64,000 bases of DNA, taken from Enterobacteria phage vB_EcoM_IME339. The notes below the pieces were generated by a model. That model ran no database searches. It had not been told where the DNA came from and was given only the letters and a program-made list of their open reading frames with translations. A program made the translations under genes and the position numbers. The stretch is taken from the sequence record MH051915. One strand, given 5' to 3'. Shown here piece by piece: positions 2,965-45,219 of the stretch. Position 1 is the first letter of the stretch. The number at the start of each line of letters is the position of its first letter.

Positions 2965-3449
2965 TTTTAAAAACTCGCTGGTATGATTTAGATGACGGGG
3001 ATGATGGCATTTCAGTTGATAGAGTTGACTGGAATGGCTGTTCCGAAGATATGAAAAATTTGCTGATTAGGGAGTTTAGAATGGGATATCAACCAGTTAA
3101 GCCATCTACTGCAACAGATGATAAATTCGTGTGTATTCATAATGGTCGCGCTAAATTAACGAACGCTGATTGGTTCACAGATAAGATTATGATTCTGTGG
3201 TATATTATTAGTTTTCCTGTGACATCATTTGTATTTTGCTTCTTTGGAGAAAGTCCAGTAGGCAGAACGGAAGATTGGATTCTTTTAATTATACTTGTTA
3301 ATATTTTTACAGCAGCAGTACTATCAGGAATATGGTGCGTGTTCATTGAAATGCCATGGCGGTTACGTAGGCAGCAAAAGATTTTTGATGAAAAGAAATA
3401 TACTCAAAATTTAAATAATTTTATCACTGAATGCAGGAAATTAAAATGA
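2961..3449 (+). CDS. small membrane protein (162 aa), paralog family
   Basis: ORF track 2946 (TTG); ATG at 2961; hydrophobic helices; C-terminus ...FITECRKLK overlapping nudE start. Confidence 0.5.
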   Translation: MILKTRWYDLDDGDDGISVDRVDWNGCSEDMKNLLIREFRMGYQPVKPSTATDDKFVCIHNGRAKLTNADWFTDKIMILWYIISFPVTSFVFCFFGESPVGRTEDWILLIILVNIFTAAVLSGIWCVFIEMPWRLRRQQKIFDEKKYTQNLNNFITECRKLK

Positions 3450-3886
3450 AAACATTATCAGCTGGTATTATCTTTATGACAGAAGATAAAGATTTATTTA
3501 TGGGACGAGTTACTGGTTCTCGTAAGCCTGGAATGATGGCACATCGTTGGGATATTCCAAAGGGGCGTGTAGAAAGTTCTGATTTGAATGCACTGGAAGC
3601 TGCAAAAAGAGAATGTTTAGAAGAGACTGGCTTTAGTAATTATAATCCAGACCTTCTAGAAGACCTAGGTGTATTTAAATATTCTAGTAATAAAGACTTA
3701 CAGTTGTTTTATTATACGATTCCAGTAGAGCATGAGATGTTTAGAAATTGCCATTGTGAGTCTTATTTTGAAAATAAAGATGGCGTTATGATTCCAGAGA
3801 TGGATGCTTTTGCTCTTATTCCTCGTACTCAGTGGCAATATGTGATGGCTCCTTCACTTTACCGAATAATGAACAGCCTCTTTTAA
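3446..3886 (+). CDS. nudE: Nudix hydrolase (T4 NudE / e.1-like)
   Basis: Nudix box GRVESSDLNALEAAKRECLEETGF; sits immediately upstream of lysozyme e as in T4. Confidence 0.8.
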   Translation: MKTLSAGIIFMTEDKDLFMGRVTGSRKPGMMAHRWDIPKGRVESSDLNALEAAKRECLEETGFSNYNPDLLEDLGVFKYSSNKDLQLFYYTIPVEHEMFRNCHCESYFENKDGVMIPEMDAFALIPRTQWQYVMAPSLYRIMNSLF

Positions 3887-4417
<531 letters not shown>

Positions 4418-5376: not shown

Positions 5377-5529
5377 GCAAATAAGAAATATGGGAACAAG
5401 CTGGACCTCATGATTCTATGAGGGATTCCCGCCAACCTGTAATAAGGTCGAGCCTGAGTGCGGTAATGGGTAAATACAGAAATGGACAATTCATGCGCCA
5501 TGGAATGGCCCAAATTTAGAGAGAATAAA

Positions 5530-6069
5530 ATGAGAACATTTTTAACTGGTCCTTATCTATCCCTGATGAATGCTTTTACACACCATTCTGATGCTAGAGT
5601 AGAAGAAATTTGTAAAAACGATTATATCCCACCATTTGAAGACTTACTCAAACAGTATTGCACACTTCGACTAGATGGTGGACGTCAATCTGGTAAATCA
5701 ACTGCTGTGACTAACTTTGCTGCTAATTGGCTGTATGACGGTGGAACAGTTATTGTTCTTTCTAATACTTCAGCTTACGCTAAAATTTCTGCGGGCCACA
5801 TTAAAAAAGAATTTTCGCGTTATTCTAATGATGATATTCGATTCCGCTTATTTACTGATTCTGTGCGCAGTTTTATTGGCAATAAAGGAAGCAAGTTCAG
5901 GGGTTTATTGCTTTCGCGAATTTTGTATATAATTGATGAGCCTGTTAAAGCTCCCGATATGGATAAAATTTATGATATTCATATTGACACTGTACATTAC
6001 TGTTGCAATAGCAAGTGTTGCATTGGTGGTATTACTCGCCCGCAGTTTTTCGTAATTGGAATGCAATGA
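5530..6069 (+). CDS. small P-loop NTPase (about 180 aa)
   Basis: Walker A GGRQSGKST, Walker B-like ILYIIDEP; ORF track 5482..6069, ATG 5530 chosen. Confidence 0.5.
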   Translation: MRTFLTGPYLSLMNAFTHHSDARVEEICKNDYIPPFEDLLKQYCTLRLDGGRQSGKSTAVTNFAANWLYDGGTVIVLSNTSAYAKISAGHIKKEFSRYSNDDIRFRLFTDSVRSFIGNKGSKFRGLLLSRILYIIDEPVKAPDMDKIYDIHIDTVHYCCNSKCCIGGITRPQFFVIGMQ

Positions 6070-6395
6070 TGACAGATACGCAACTTTTCGAATATCTTTA
6101 TTTTTCGCCAAAAACTATTAAAAATAAATTGGTGAATCATTTTGAAATTTTGGCAAATAACAACGTCTTGAGCGAATTTTATCCTAAGCAATACAAATTA
6201 CAAAAAGGTGTATTCAAAGGATGCAGAGTTTTGTGTACTGCTCCTAATGCAAGATTAATGAATAAAATTCCATATTTTACCATGGAATTTATTGATGGAC
6301 CTTTTAAAGGACTAATCACCCAAAGTTTAATGGCATATGATTCTGAGCCATTTTTAATTAAAGAACAATCTTGGATAAATTTATTTTCTAATTGA
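6066..6395 (+). CDS. hypothetical protein (109 aa)
   Basis: ATG at 6066 overlaps upstream stop (ATGA); ORF track 6015..6395. Confidence 0.45.
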
Positions 6396-30771: not shown

Positions 30772-31974
30772 ATGAAAGTATGTATTTTTATGGCTCGAGG
30801 TCTTGAAGGTTGCGGTGTAACTAAATTTTCTCTTGAGCAACGTGATTGGTTTATTAAAAATGGTCATGAAGTAACTTTGGTTTATGCTAAAGATAAATCA
30901 TTTACACGTAATTGCGCGCATGATTATAAATCATTTTCAATTCCGGTTTTATTGGCAAAAGAATACGATAAAACACTTAAGCTGGTAAATGATTGTGATA
31001 TTCTAATTATCAATTCAGTTCCTGCTACTTCAGTCGAAGAAGACACTATTAATAACTATAAAAAAATTATTGATAACATTAAACCTTCAGTTCGTGTTGT
31101 AGTTTATCAACATGACCATTCTTCTCTTTCTTTGCGCCGAAATTTGGGATTAGAAGAAACTGTTCGTCGAGCTGATGTTATTTTTAGTCATTCTGATAAT
31201 GGTGATTTTAATAAAGTTCTGATGAAAGAATGGTATCCAGAAACAGTTTCTCTGTTTGATGATATTGAAGAAGCACCGACTGTATACAACTTTCAGCCTC
31301 CTATGGATATTGCGAAGGTTCGATCAACCTACTGGAAAGATGTTTCTGAAATTAACATGAATGTCAACCGTTGGATTGGTCGTACGACTACATGGAAAGG
31401 TTTTTATCAGATGTTTGATTTTCACGAAAAACATCTTAAACCTGCTGGACTAAGTACTATTATGGAAGGTCTGGAACGTTCTCCAGCGTTCATTCCTATT
31501 AAAGAAAAAGGAATTCCATACGAGTATTATCGTCTTCATCAAGTAGACCAAATTAAAATTGCTCCTAATTTGCCAACGCAAATTCTCGACCGTTATGTAA
31601 ATAGCGAAATGCTTGAACGCATGAGTAAATCCGGATTTGGTTATCAGTTGAGTAAGTTGGACAAAAAATATCTACAACGTTCTTTAGAATATACTCATCT
31701 CGAGCTTGGCGCGTGCGGAACAATTCCAGTATTTTGGAAATCTACTGGCGAAAATTTAAAATTCCGTGTTGATAATACTCCGTTAATTTCTCATGATAGT
31801 GGTATCGTTTGGTTTGATGAAAATGACATGGAATCAACATTTGAGCGTATTAAAGAACTGTCATCTGACCGAGCTCTTTATGACTGTGAACGCGAAAAAG
31901 CTTATGAATTTTTGTATCAGCATCAAGATTCAAGCTTCTGCTTTAAAGAACAGTTTGACATTATTACAAAATAA
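30772..31974 (+). CDS. a-gt: DNA alpha-glucosyltransferase
   Basis: 400 aa, MKVCIFMARGLEGCGVTKFSLEQRDWFIKNGHEVTLVYAKDK...; recalled T4 alpha-gt. Confidence 0.9.
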   Translation: MKVCIFMARGLEGCGVTKFSLEQRDWFIKNGHEVTLVYAKDKSFTRNCAHDYKSFSIPVLLAKEYDKTLKLVNDCDILIINSVPATSVEEDTINNYKKIIDNIKPSVRVVVYQHDHSSLSLRRNLGLEETVRRADVIFSHSDNGDFNKVLMKEWYPETVSLFDDIEEAPTVYNFQPPMDIAKVRSTYWKDVSEINMNVNRWIGRTTTWKGFYQMFDFHEKHLKPAGLSTIMEGLERSPAFIPIKEKGIPYEYYRLHQVDQIKIAPNLPTQILDRYVNSEMLERMSKSGFGYQLSKLDKKYLQRSLEYTHLELGACGTIPVFWKSTGENLKFRVDNTPLISHDSGIVWFDENDMESTFERIKELSSDRALYDCEREKAYEFLYQHQDSSFCFKEQFDIITK

Positions 31975-32154: not shown

Positions 32155-33170
32155 AAATTTTAAATTTAGGTGATTGGCATTTAGGTGTTAAAGCCGATGA
32201 TGAGTGGGTTCAATCCATTCAGTTGGATGGAATTAAACAAGCAATAGAATATTCTAAGAAAAACGGAATTACTACATGGATTCAATACGGCGATATTTTT
32301 GATGTGCGAAAAGCCATCACGCATAAAACTATGGAGTTCGCTCGTGAAATAGTTCAAATGCTTGATGATGCTGGTATTACCCTACATACTGTCGTAGGAA
32401 ACCATGATATGCACTTTAAAAATACTTTAACTCCAAATGCTTCTACCGAGCTTTTGGCTAAATATCCTAATGTTAAAGTATATGATAAGCCTACTACAGT
32501 AGATTTTGACGGATGTTTGATTGATTTAATTCCTTGGATGTGCGAAGAAAATACTGGTGAAATTCTTGAACATATTAAAACTTCATCTGCTTCTTTTTGT
32601 GTTGGTCACTGGGAACTGAATGGATTTTATTTTTATAAAGGAATGAAATCTCACGGTCTTGAACCTGATTTCCTTAAGACTTATAAAGAGGTATGGTCTG
32701 GTCACTTCCATACTATCTCTGAGGCTGCTAACGTCAGATATATTGGGACACCATGGACACTAACTGCAGGTGACGAGAATGACCCTCGCGGGTTCTGGAT
32801 GTTTGATACAGAAACAGAACGAATGGAATTTATTCCAAACAACACTACCTGGCATCGTCGAATTCAATATCCATTTAAGGGAAAAATTGACTATAAAGAT
32901 TTTACAAATCTATCAGTGCGTGTTATAGTAACTGAAGTAGACAAAAATCTAACGAAGTTCGAATCTGAACTAGAAAAAGTTGTGCATTCATTACGAGTTG
33001 TGTCAAAGATTGATAACTCAGTCGAGTCAGATGATAGTGAAGAAGTTGAAGTTCAATCTCTTCAGACGTTGATGGAAGAATACATTAATGCAATTCCAGA
33101 CATCACTGATTCTGACCGCGAAGCACTTATTCAATATGCAAATCAGTTATATGTAGAGGCAACACAATGA
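32151..33170 (+). CDS. 47: recombination endonuclease subunit gp47 (Mre11-like)
   Basis: 339 aa; phosphoesterase motifs (GDWHLG, GNHD); T4 gp47 length. Confidence 0.95.
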   Translation: MKILNLGDWHLGVKADDEWVQSIQLDGIKQAIEYSKKNGITTWIQYGDIFDVRKAITHKTMEFAREIVQMLDDAGITLHTVVGNHDMHFKNTLTPNASTELLAKYPNVKVYDKPTTVDFDGCLIDLIPWMCEENTGEILEHIKTSSASFCVGHWELNGFYFYKGMKSHGLEPDFLKTYKEVWSGHFHTISEAANVRYIGTPWTLTAGDENDPRGFWMFDTETERMEFIPNNTTWHRRIQYPFKGKIDYKDFTNLSVRVIVTEVDKNLTKFESELEKVVHSLRVVSKIDNSVESDDSEEVEVQSLQTLMEEYINAIPDITDSDREALIQYANQLYVEATQ

Positions 33171-33430
33171 CTTTTGATGAATTTAAAAATGTTATGATGA
33201 GTCAGCATTTTGAATGCGAAGTAAAAGATGATATTGGGCATAAAGAAATTATTGAATACTGGTTTGAACCGCTAGAGGTTGAAGATGATTGTATTAAAAA
33301 GGTTACGGTCTGCACTGACTGGGCTGTATCTTTTAACTTCAACATTTTAGATAATGACACACCTAAATCATTACAAGATATGGCTGTATCTTGTATTAAG
33401 GATGCATACTGTGAAGTTTTCGACATTTGA
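33167..33430 (+). CDS. hypothetical protein (87 aa)
   Basis: ORF track; ATGA junction. Confidence 0.5.
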   Translation: MTFDEFKNVMMSQHFECEVKDDIGHKEIIEYWFEPLEVEDDCIKKVTVCTDWAVSFNFNILDNDTPKSLQDMAVSCIKDAYCEVFDI

Positions 33431-33617
33431 CATTAACGATGAATTCGTAGCAAATATTGATTACACCGAAGAAGATTCTAGATATGTTGGAATAATTTAT
33501 ATCACATCAAAAGCAGCGCAAGGTGTTGTTTGCATGGCTGAATTTGATGAATACTTTTTAGATTATGATGATATGATAGAATGGTCTAAAAGATACATTA
33601 AAAGGAATCTTTTGTGA
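33402..33617 (+). CDS. hypothetical protein (about 71 aa)
   Basis: ORF track 33354; start uncertain. Confidence 0.35.
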   Translation: MHTVKFSTFDINDEFVANIDYTEEDSRYVGIIYITSKAAQGVVCMAEFDEYFLDYDDMIEWSKRYIKRNLL

Positions 33618-41436: not shown

Positions 41437-41478
41437 CATACAAGTAATATAAATCTATACTTAGGAAAAATAGATGAT

Positions 41479-41590
41479 TCTGGACCTCTGGAATTCATTA
41501 AAAATTTTTTTCACAAAATGGTTTACATCCCGGTTCCTTTGTGGTACTATACAACTATCAACTACTGATACAGATTTGGAGAATGAAATG
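41479..41590 (+). promoter_or_regulatory. repeated promoter-leader cassette, copy 4
   Basis: Shares 'tctggacctct..gaattc..ttttcacaaaa(c/t)ggtttaca...ggtactatacaactatcaactactgatacag..ttggagaatgaaATG' with copy 1. Confidence 0.6.
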
Positions 41591-41968
41591 AAAATCGCTA
41601 TTTTGGTTATTGCATTGGGTCTTACTGGTTGTGTAGCTCAAGGACCAGTAGTAAATCAGTCTGATGCAGGAAAAATTGTAAACTGTTCAAGCAAATTTTA
41701 TAATCCTAACGTCAAGTGTTATAAAGAAGCTCCAAAACAGACAGTAGAACAAATGCAGGCGAATTTTGACGAAGCTATTCGTTCAGATGAATCTGCCCAA
41801 GCATATCGTAATTCAGATGTAATTACACGCGAAGAAAAAATTGAAAATTACTGCGCCGTTCTTTGGGCAAATTGGGCTAATAATTACCAATGGCGTACAG
41901 GTAAAAACGCTCCGATGGAGTATGTAGTGAATTCTTATAATTCATGTGTAAAAAATTTGACTAAGTGA
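41588..41968 (+). CDS. lipoprotein (126 aa) next to imm
   Basis: Signal peptide plus lipobox LTGC; ATG 41588 behind cassette SD. Confidence 0.6.
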   Translation: MKIAILVIALGLTGCVAQGPVVNQSDAGKIVNCSSKFYNPNVKCYKEAPKQTVEQMQANFDEAIRSDESAQAYRNSDVITREEKIENYCAVLWANWANNYQWRTGKNAPMEYVVNSYNSCVKNLTK

Positions 41969-41975
41969 GGAAAAC

Positions 41976-42227
41976 ATGGAAACTTTAGTAGCAGGTTCAA
42001 TTTTTATGGTTTTAGTTTCAGGCGTGTTGGCTATTATTATATACATGCTTCCGTGGTTCATCGCCTTGATGCGTGGGTCAAAATCGACAGTAGGAATCTT
42101 TTTCACATCTTTACTGTTTAACTGGTCAATCATTGGTTGGTTTATTACATTTATTTGGTCAATTGCGGGTGAAACTAAAAAATCTGTACAGCAAAATCAA
42201 GTAATTATCATCAGAGAGAAGGAATGA
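41976..42227 (+). CDS. imm: superinfection immunity membrane protein Imm
   Basis: 83 aa, two hydrophobic helices; T4 Imm size and position between 43 and 42. Confidence 0.8.
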   Translation: METLVAGSIFMVLVSGVLAIIIYMLPWFIALMRGSKSTVGIFFTSLLFNWSIIGWFITFIWSIAGETKKSVQQNQVIIIREKE

Positions 42228-42373
42228 AAAGCAAAATTTTAGCAGTATTGCTTTTAATCTTGATGATTATAATAAGTATATACTATAGCGTAACGGTTCC
42301 TTGCATGATTCCGACACTTATTATAGGTTGGGGTTTATTACTGTTACAAGTTAAATATGAATGTATCAATTGA
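42224..42373 (+). CDS. possible small membrane peptide (49 aa)
   Basis: Hand-translated MKSKILAVLLLILMIIISIYY...; ATGA-coupled to imm. Confidence 0.3.
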   Translation: MKSKILAVLLLILMIIISIYYSVTVPCMIPTLIIGWGLLLLQVKYECIN

Positions 42374-42380
42374 GGTTTAA

Positions 42381-43121
42381 ATGATTAATGACTCTATGAC
42401 AGTTGAAGAAATCCGTCTTCATTTGGGAATTGCATTAAAGGAAAAAGATTTCGTAGTTGATAAAACTGGTGTTAAAACTATTGAAATTATTGGTGCATCA
42501 TTTGTAGCAGATGAACCTTTTATTTTTGGCGCTCTTAATGATGAATACATTCAGCGTGAACTTGAATGGTATAAGTCTCAAAGTTTGTTTGTTAAAGATA
42601 TTCCAGGTGAAACACCAAAGATTTGGCAGCAGGTAGCATCTTCTAAAGGCGAAATTAACTCGAATTATGGTTGGGCTATCTGGTCAGAAGATAACTATGC
42701 TCAGTATGATATGTGTTTAGCTGAACTTGGTCAAAATCCTGATTCTCGGCGTGGTATCATGATTTATACTCGTCCATCCATGCAGTTTGACTACAACAAA
42801 GATGGTATGTCAGATTTCATGTGTACGAATACAGTACAGTACCTGATTCGTGATAAGAAAGTCAATGCAGTAGTAAGCATGCGTTCAAATGACGTGGTCT
42901 TCGGATTCCGTAATGATTATGCATGGCAAAAATACGTACTAGATAAATTAGTATCTGATTTGAATGCAGGTGATTCAACTCGCCAGTATAAAGCAGGTTC
43001 CATTATATGGAATGTCGGGAGCCTTCATGTGTATTCTCGTCATTTTTATTTGGTTGACCATTGGTGGAAAACCGGCGAAACTCATATTGCGAAAAAAGAT
43101 TATAATGGTGAGTGGAAATGA
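42381..43121 (+). CDS. 42: dCMP hydroxymethylase gp42
   Basis: 246 aa; thymidylate-synthase-like fold; T4 gp42 length. Confidence 0.95.
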   Translation: MINDSMTVEEIRLHLGIALKEKDFVVDKTGVKTIEIIGASFVADEPFIFGALNDEYIQRELEWYKSQSLFVKDIPGETPKIWQQVASSKGEINSNYGWAIWSEDNYAQYDMCLAELGQNPDSRRGIMIYTRPSMQFDYNKDGMSDFMCTNTVQYLIRDKKVNAVVSMRSNDVVFGFRNDYAWQKYVLDKLVSDLNAGDSTRQYKAGSIIWNVGSLHVYSRHFYLVDHWWKTGETHIAKKDYNGEWK

Positions 43122-43960
43122 TTCAATTTGTAATTCCAAGCTATCAACGCGTAGGGGCAGTTTCTGCCCTTGATATGTTTCCGACTGATTATGAACCTCA
43201 TATTGTAGTACGTGAACATGAAGAAAAAGCTTATTATGACGCTTACGGGTCTAGAGCTAAAATTATAACTATTCCTGATGATGTTAATGGAATTGCTGGA
43301 ACTCGTAAAGCAATTACTGATATGTATGCAGGTCAACGAATTTGGATGATTGATGATGATACTACTATTCGTATGAGTTCAATGCGAAAGAAAGATGATC
43401 GTCGCTGCGTAGATAAAATTAATCAATTAACTCGTGAACAGTTCTATGAATTGATTCAATACGTGGAAGATGCCATGGATTGCGGGTATTATCACGGTCA
43501 TGCTCGTCTACCTATTTTTAAAATTACTTCATCTTGGGGTAATTATCGTGAAAATTCATATGGATTCACGAATACATGGTATGACCTCGGAAAACTTACT
43601 ACAGAACAAATTGGGTATGGAAAAATTGATTTATGCGAAGATATGTATGCATTTCTCAATTTAATTAACCAAGGTTATCCGCATTTGGCTTTGTTCAAAT
43701 ATCTGGTTGTGTCTGGAAAAGCGCAGGCTCCTGGCGGATGTAGTTCAATTCGTAGTAATTCAAAACATAATAGAGCTCTTGAGCAAATCAATAGAGAGTT
43801 TCCAGAGCAAGCTCGTTGGAAAACTTCTAATATTGAAAAACGAAAATCATTAGGTGAAGAAGACGAGCCATTAAAGGTTCTTCGTATGTGTGTTTCGCGC
43901 AAAGAAAAATCAGAAGCGTTTCATAAGTTTAATGCTATTCATCCAATAGCAGTCGATTAA
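43118..43960 (+). CDS. putative glycosyltransferase (DxD motif) at the beta-gt position
   Basis: 280 aa, ...RIWMIDDDTT...; unlike recalled T4 beta-gt; may correspond to T2/T6-type beta-alpha-gt. Confidence 0.55.
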   Translation: MIQFVIPSYQRVGAVSALDMFPTDYEPHIVVREHEEKAYYDAYGSRAKIITIPDDVNGIAGTRKAITDMYAGQRIWMIDDDTTIRMSSMRKKDDRRCVDKINQLTREQFYELIQYVEDAMDCGYYHGHARLPIFKITSSWGNYRENSYGFTNTWYDLGKLTTEQIGYGKIDLCEDMYAFLNLINQGYPHLALFKYLVVSGKAQAPGGCSSIRSNSKHNRALEQINREFPEQARWKTSNIEKRKSLGEEDEPLKVLRMCVSRKEKSEAFHKFNAIHPIAVD

Positions 43961-43984
43961 TGCCTAAATTTATTGTGTTATAAT
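43961..43984 (+). promoter_or_regulatory. middle-promoter-like element upstream of uvsX
   Basis: TGCCTAA (near MotA box) 43961-43967; TATAAT 43979-43984. Confidence 0.4.
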
Positions 43985-44037
43985 TACCCTATCTTTAACC
44001 AGTGAGGAAAATATAATGATGCCTATGGAAAAAATGA

Positions 44038-45219
44038 ATGTCTATTGCAGATTTAAAATCCCGTTTGATTAAAGCTTCCACTTCTAAAATGACTGCTGAA
44101 CTGACTACATCTAAATTCTTTAATGAAAAGGATGTAATCCGTACAAAAATTCCAATGCTTAATATCGCTATTTCCGGCGCGATTGATGGTGGTATGCAGT
44201 CTGGTTTAACTATTTTTGCAGGTCCTTCTAAACACTTTAAATCAAATATGTCTTTGACTATGGTTGCGGCGTATTTGAACAAATATCCTGATGCGGTTTG
44301 TCTATTTTATGATAGCGAATTTGGTATTACTCCAGCTTATTTGCGATCCATGGGAGTTGACCCGGAACGAGTAATTCATACACCAATCCAGTCAGTTGAA
44401 CAACTGAAAATTGATATGGTGAATCAGCTTGAAGCTATTGAGCGCGGTGAAAAAGTTATTGTATTCATCGACTCAATCGGTAATATGGCTTCTAAGAAAG
44501 AAACGGAAGATGCCTTGAATGAAAAATCTGTGGCAGATATGACTCGTGCTAAATCACTGAAGTCATTATTCCGTATTGTTACTCCTTATTTTAGTATTAA
44601 AAACATTCCGTGCGTTGCGGTTAACCATACAATTGAAACAATTGAAATGTTTAGTAAAACCGTGATGACAGGTGGTACAGGCGTAATGTATTCGGCTGAT
44701 ACTGTATTCATTATCGGTAAGCGTCAGATTAAAGATGGTTCTGATCTTCAGGGGTATCAATTTGTTCTAAATGTAGAAAAATCTCGTACCGTTAAAGAAA
44801 AAAGTAAATTCTTTATTGATGTTAAATTTGACGGTGGTATCGATCCTTATTCTGGATTGTTAGATATGGCTCTTGAATTAGGATTTGTAGTAAAACCTAA
44901 AAATGGCTGGTATGCTCGTGAATTTCTTGATGAAGAAACCGGCGAGATGATTCGCGAAGAAAAATCTTGGCGTGCAAAAGATACCAACTGTACTACATTC
45001 TGGGGTCCTTTATTTAAGCATCAACCATTCCGAGATGCTATTAAACGCGCTTATCAGTTGGGTGCTATTGATAGTAATGAAATTGTTGAAGCTGAAGTTG
45101 ATGAATTGATTAACTCAAAGGTTGAAAAATTTAAATCTCCAGAAAGTAAAAGTAAATCAGCAGCTGATTTAGAAACTGACCTAGATCAGTTAAGTGATAT
45201 GGAAGAATTTAATGAATAA
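44038..45219 (+). CDS. uvsX: RecA-like recombinase UvsX
   Basis: 393 aa; Walker A GPSKHFKS; strong similarity to recalled T4 UvsX. Confidence 0.97.
   Translation: MSIADLKSRLIKASTSKMTAELTTSKFFNEKDVIRTKIPMLNIAISGAIDGGMQSGLTIFAGPSKHFKSNMSLTMVAAYLNKYPDAVCLFYDSEFGITPAYLRSMGVDPERVIHTPIQSVEQLKIDMVNQLEAIERGEKVIVFIDSIGNMASKKETEDALNEKSVADMTRAKSLKSLFRIVTPYFSIKNIPCVAVNHTIETIEMFSKTVMTGGTGVMYSADTVFIIGKRQIKDGSDLQGYQFVLNVEKSRTVKEKSKFFIDVKFDGGIDPYSGLLDMALELGFVVKPKNGWYAREFLDEETGEMIREEKSWRAKDTNCTTFWGPLFKHQPFRDAIKRAYQLGAIDSNEIVEAEVDELINSKVEKFKSPESKSKSAADLETDLDQLSDMEEFNE

Follow-up and report, generated by a model that had tools for sequence, protein, structure and literature searches.

A predicted T2/T6-type beta-glucosyl-HMC-alpha-glucosyltransferase gene at the locus of T4 beta-glucosyltransferase in Enterobacteria phage vB_EcoM_IME339

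Introduction

The reaction carried out by the beta-glucosyl-HMC-alpha-glucosyltransferase (ba-gt) of phages T2 and T6 was established by the enzymology of the 1960s. In the form in which this work is cited in a recent paper, the enzyme transfers glucose onto alpha-glucosylated hmC to give gentiobiosyl (beta-1,6-glucosyl-alpha-glucosyl) hmC (Kuno & Lehman 1962 as cited in PMC13216743). Two papers from 2026 describe phages with gentiobiosyl-hmC DNA that encode an alpha-GT together with a TAGT, a transferase of GT-A fold whose gene lies at the position syntenic with T4 beta-GT (PMC13390438, PMC13216743), and the same arrangement is described in PMC6024577. In new Tequatrovirus isolates with alpha-GT and TAGT, HPLC/MS detects alpha-5-gentiobiosylmethyl-dC and no beta-5-glucosylmethyl-dC (PMC13390438). 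An AlphaFold3 model of the T6 TAGT has a GT-A fold that is sister to GT2, whereas the alpha-GT and beta-GT of T4 are both GT-B (PMC13216743). The extent of the modification differs widely between the two classical phages, with gentiobiosyl groups on about 5% of cytosines in T2 and about 72% in T6 (PMC6024577, PMC13390438), and what the second glucose does biologically is described as "yet to be defined" (PMC13216743).

Here we consider a 64-kb window, that is, the whole stretch of 64,000 nucleotides of phage vB_EcoM_IME339 (record MH051915) that was analysed. An initial annotation of this DNA had proposed that a T2/T6-type ba-gt, partnered by an alpha-gt, stands where T4 carries its beta-glucosyltransferase (beta-gt, b-gt), and we compared the locus with the syntenic regions of T2 (AP018813), T6 (AP018814, MH550421) and T4 (NC_000866).

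Results

The candidate gene lies directly after gene 42 (Table 1), which is named as such at the syntenic position in the annotations of PP01, T4 and T6. Its ATG (43118-43120) and the TGA of gene 42 (43119-43121) share the tetranucleotide ATGA, and its frame closes with a TAA stop (43958-43960); the 280-aa, ATGA-coupled ORF of the initial annotation is therefore borne out, coordinates and overlap included. The junction is base-for-base the same in T2, T6 and PP01. A mechanical ORF list opens the frame earlier, with the GTG at 43112, which would give 282 aa; we prefer ATG 43118 because all annotated homologues start there and the junction is conserved. The overlap suggests that ba-gt is co-transcribed with, and translationally coupled to, this early nucleotide-modification gene, and so would itself be expressed as an early gene. 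A scan of 41900-44200 for promoters and terminators returned counts at the shuffled expectation (10 promoters against 9.1, 1 terminator against 1.0), and the sole terminator-like hairpin falls within the ba-gt coding sequence (43152-43172) and was not accepted as functional.

Table 1. Positions in the 64-kb window of ba-gt, its partner genes and neighbouring features.
Feature	Position	Strand	Basis and remarks
ba-gt / TAGT (beta-glucosyl-HMC-alpha-glucosyltransferase), predicted CDS	43118..43960	+	843 nt, 280 aa; ORF, profile and homologue matches
gene 42, dCMP hydroxymethylase	42381..43121	+	PF00303 (Thymidylat_synt), E 1e-15; synteny
Coupling junction	43107..43121	+	SD-like GGTGAG (43107-43112), then ATGA overlap; direct sequence reading
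Codons of D79-D80-D81, DxD-type motif, presumed metal and nucleotide-sugar binding	43352..43360	+	invariance in homologues; catalytic role putative
a-gt, DNA alpha-glucosyltransferase	30772..31974	+	PF11440, E 5.2e-236, full profile; syntenic with PP01 a-gt
uvsX recombinase, downstream neighbour	44038..45219	+	PF21134, PF00154
imm	41976..42227		superinfection-immunity gene
49-aa ORF	42224..42373	+	very hydrophobic
imm.1 region	41474..41968	+	single 164-aa ORF in the mechanical list

Profile searches assign the protein consistently. PHROG 842, "beta-glucosyl-HMC-alpha-glucosyltransferase", matches with an E-value of 5.6e-89 (residues 1-275 against positions 4-269 of 270), and Pfam PF20691, the TET-associated glycosyltransferase (TAGT) family, matches at 38.8 bits, the gathering score that serves as its cut-off being 27.5 bits (residues 3-207 against positions 2-205 of 205). 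At the nucleotide level, the gene had megablast matches of 90-99% identity to 477 phage records, nearly all of them T4-like phages of Escherichia, Shigella, Yersinia, Salmonella and Citrobacter. It adjoins gene 42 in every matched record, and the majority label it beta-glucosyl-HMC-alpha-glucosyltransferase; the label "b-gt" is also found in many. Identical proteins (100% by tblastn) occur in phages vB_Eco_ZCEC15, KFS-EC3 and pSs-1, remoter homologues with 47-66% identity in T4-like phages of Klebsiella, Enterobacter, Citrobacter and Serratia, and the 11 homologues retrieved from a large protein database are TAGT without exception. With 477 matching phage records, the ORF is far beyond chance. 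By every comparison testable at the level of sequence, it belongs to the T2/T6 ba-gt family and not to the T4 beta-gt family. The gene is already known and ordinary, with nothing new in the sequence itself.

The closest comparison is with T2 and T6, whose proteins at the same locus are identical to ours at 276 of 280 residues (99%) and 274 of 280 (98%), respectively; the length, the ATGA coupling to gene 42, the flanking genes (42 on one side, uvsX on the other) and the alpha-gt partner are all alike. The substitutions are R11H, K92R, I101V and P251S against T2, and Y40N, D55G, K92R, I101V and R106H against T6, so that the variant of vB_EcoM_IME339 is intermediate between the two; the 4-6 differences all lie at variable columns of the family alignment. 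A functional difference from the T2/T6 enzymes is not arguable from these sequences. The T2 and T6 enzymes are themselves about 97% identical.

Both deposited T6 genomes carry lesions in ba-gt, and different ones. In AP018814 (gene at 3135-3974 of the fetched region), one GAT is missing from the GATGATGAT run that encodes DDD, leaving 279 aa; in MH550421 (gene at 2138-2980 of the fetched region), an amber TAG stands at codon 10 (window 43145-43147), which is CAA in the window, T2 and PP01 and CAG in AP018814, and the gene is annotated as a shortened 261-aa "ggt" from an internal Met. As T6 is the classical gentiobiosyl-rich phage, these lesions may have arisen by mutation in laboratory stocks or by error in sequencing, and the RefSeq T6 protein that serves as a family reference may be affected. 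We considered whether the single-D deletion of AP018814 could be a T6-specific cause of high gentiobiosylation, and dropped the idea because MH550421 keeps the full DDD.

The T4 enzyme resembles the protein in its map position downstream of gene 42, its UDP-glucose donor, the kind of DNA-substrate pathway in which it acts and its beta linkage. The two differ in length and acceptor: T4 b-gt has 351 aa against 280, and it acts on bare 5-hmC rather than on alpha-glucosyl-hmC. The initial annotation had seen no resemblance between the sequences, and this was upheld by BLASTP, which found no similarity to T4 beta-gt (best E-value 3.4, over 8 residues); a Pfam search of the protein found no match to PF09198, the T4 b-gt family. 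Nor does a T4-type beta-gt lie elsewhere, since tblastn of T4 b-gt against the whole 64-kb window returned nothing at E<=10. In T4, the GIY-YIG homing endonuclease gene segA lies between b-gt and uvsX. T4 segA gave only chance-level tblastn matches across the whole window, and segA is absent from the locus, where 77 bp (43961-44037) separate the ba-gt stop from uvsX. The fold class differs too: T4 b-gt is GT-B (PF09198), and ba-gt is GT-A according to the literature and to the Foldseek matches of our model (PMC13216743).

A PDB sequence search with the protein gave only chance-level matches (E >= 0.76), so that there is no solved close relative and the fold was assessed through a model. The AlphaFold2 model, built on a shallow alignment of homologues, is of moderate confidence (mean pLDDT 71.6, pTM 0.72); its N-terminal half is confident, and residues 131-150 and 192-211 are disordered, with pLDDT below 50. 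It shows an alternating beta-alpha pattern in which DDD directly follows the beta-strand 74-78, as expected for GT-A. The GT-A-like DxD motif that the initial annotation had picked out, IWMIDDDTT, spans residues 76-84, and its D79, D80 and D81 are invariant in the alignment that served for the model, nine sequences with homologues down to 32% identity. The best Foldseek matches in the PDB are all GT-A transferases, namely WrtF, AvpGT, RmlT, TarS, TarP and the chondroitin polymerase K4CP, several of them inverting GT2 beta-glycosyltransferases, with structurally related sugar-nucleotidyltransferases ranking after them; E-values reach 3.9e-4 and probabilities are near 1, with modest TM-scores of about 0.44. 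Like the protein modelled here, the bacterial GT2-type inverting enzymes (TarS, TarP, RmlT, K4CP and WrtF) carry a DxD-type acidic motif after the central beta-strand. They share only 11-15% sequence identity with it at a TM-score of about 0.4, are not members of its family at the sequence level, as the empty PDB sequence search indicates, and act on teichoic acid or polysaccharide where the acceptor of ba-gt is DNA. The model thus points to a GT-A fold, and the DxD-type motif is conserved; because the model confidence is moderate and the TM-scores are modest, the fold assignment draws in part on Pfam and on published work. Neither similarity to T4 beta-gt nor a lack of glycosyltransferase fold came to light, and the initial reading of the gene stands on both points.

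The surroundings are those of a T2- or T6-like phage. Over the 20 kb around ba-gt, identity to phages ime09 and PP01 (genus Tequatrovirus) is 97-98%, and the gene order 43, imm.1, imm, 42, ba-gt, uvsX, 40, 41 is the same in PP01, T2 and T6. The alpha-gt on which the initial annotation relied is indeed present, and genes 47 and 46 lie downstream of it, which is also the arrangement in PP01; with gene 42, alpha-gt and ba-gt all there, the window holds the full T2/T6-type set. Alpha-gt and ba-gt without beta-gt is the common arrangement among Tequatrovirus phages.

Several smaller observations concern the neighbouring genes. A 49-aa, very hydrophobic ORF (MKSKILAVLLLILMIIISIYYSVTVPCMIPTLIIGWGLLLLQVKYECIN) fills the gap between imm and gene 42, its ATG overlapping the imm TGA as ATGA; it is unannotated in the T4 RefSeq record and in PP01. 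By tblastn, its protein is found in 764 phage records, other genera included, a few of which annotate it as hypothetical, and its C-terminal 30 residues are 54-67% conserved in Dhakavirus, Kosakonia and Pectobacterium phages. It is likely to encode a genuine small membrane protein, expressed together with imm. The annotated Imm.1 starts at an internal Met (MKIAILVIALGLTGC...) that opens a stretch resembling the signal peptide of a lipoprotein, lipobox cysteine included; in public records the protein is labelled only a "predicted membrane protein". Further away, genes 46.1 and 46 of PP01 are separated by a homing endonuclease gene (5382-6236 of the fetched region) that, judged by ORF spacing, seems to be missing at about 33170-33614 of the window. 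Variation in the presence or absence of mobile endonucleases is typical among T-even phages.

Discussion

Near-identity to the T2 and T6 proteins, the PHROG 842 and PF20691 matches, synteny and the alpha-gt partner all argue for the reading of the initial annotation, in which a T2/T6-type ba-gt replaces T4 beta-gt; direct alignment, the check it had called for, places the protein beside the T2/T6 enzymes and finds T4 b-gt unrelated. We are all but certain that the gene encodes a ba-gt (TAGT) that would add a second glucose to alpha-glucosyl-hmC, the reaction itself being known from the T2/T6 enzymes. In the pathway that we envisage, gp42 would make hm-dCMP, the phage polymerase would build it into DNA, and alpha-gt would attach an alpha-linked glucose to 5-hmC in the DNA. 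Ba-gt would then move a second glucose from host UDP-glucose onto this alpha-glucose in beta-1,6 linkage, yielding gentiobiosyl-hmC. Going from a UDP-alpha-glucose donor to a beta-linked product, the reaction would invert the configuration, as do the GT2-like GT-A enzymes that the model resembles; ba-gt is thus most likely an inverting GT-A transferase, in which D79-D81 may be the binding site of the divalent metal and of the pyrophosphate of UDP. On this basis we infer that the DNA of vB_EcoM_IME339 carries gentiobiosyl-hmC.

Could the enzyme instead be a functional replacement for T4 beta-gt, glucosylating bare 5-hmC directly to the mono-beta form rather than extending alpha-glucosyl-hmC? 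It shares the map position of T4 b-gt, whose name it bears in many records, and TAGT homologues are found also with beta-GT or alone (PMC13216743), so that acceptor specificity across the TAGT family is not fully defined. However, the protein is 98-99% identical to enzymes of two phages whose DNA has no beta-monoglucosyl-hmC, Tequatrovirus phages with the same gene set show no beta-5-glc-mdC (PMC13390438), and T4 beta-gt is unrelated both in sequence and in fold class (GT-A against GT-B). Direct glucosylation of bare 5-hmC therefore seems to us highly improbable. Perhaps less far-fetched, if still unlikely, is an enzyme that is intact and of minor effect, either giving a T2-like level of about 5% gentiobiosyl or using another sugar donor, and largely vestigial under laboratory hosts. 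Indeed, T2 reportedly reaches only about 5% gentiobiosyl-hmC with an enzyme 99% identical to this one (PMC6024577), and the lesions in both deposited T6 sequences, a lost D codon and an amber codon 10, suggest that ba-gt is dispensable in culture. Against such a diminished role, the reading frame is unbroken in vB_EcoM_IME339, as it is in hundreds of independent isolates, and protein identity (95-100%) exceeds nucleotide identity (90-99%), which is consistent with purifying selection.

How much of the DNA a functional ba-gt would modify is a separate matter from the reaction that it performs. T2 and T6 lie 14-fold apart although their enzymes are nearly identical; the presence of ba-gt therefore does not predict the di-glucosylated share, in vB_EcoM_IME339 any more than elsewhere, and a further determinant of the extent of gentiobiosylation is implied. 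This could lie in the few substitutions, in expression level or in an interplay with alpha-gt and the replisome; that the variant of vB_EcoM_IME339 could help to map it is a suggestion that we make with considerable doubt.

The value of these comparisons is one of correct annotation: the window belongs to a T2/T6-type Tequatrovirus, with alpha-gt and ba-gt, and not to a T4-type phage with alpha-gt and beta-gt. Its DNA is predicted to contain alpha-glucosyl- and gentiobiosyl-hmC without beta-glucosyl-hmC, and this predicted modification bears both on the sensitivity of the phage to modification-dependent defences, such as GmrSD-family enzymes and Brig1-type glycosylases, and on how its DNA would behave with restriction enzymes and in sequencing.
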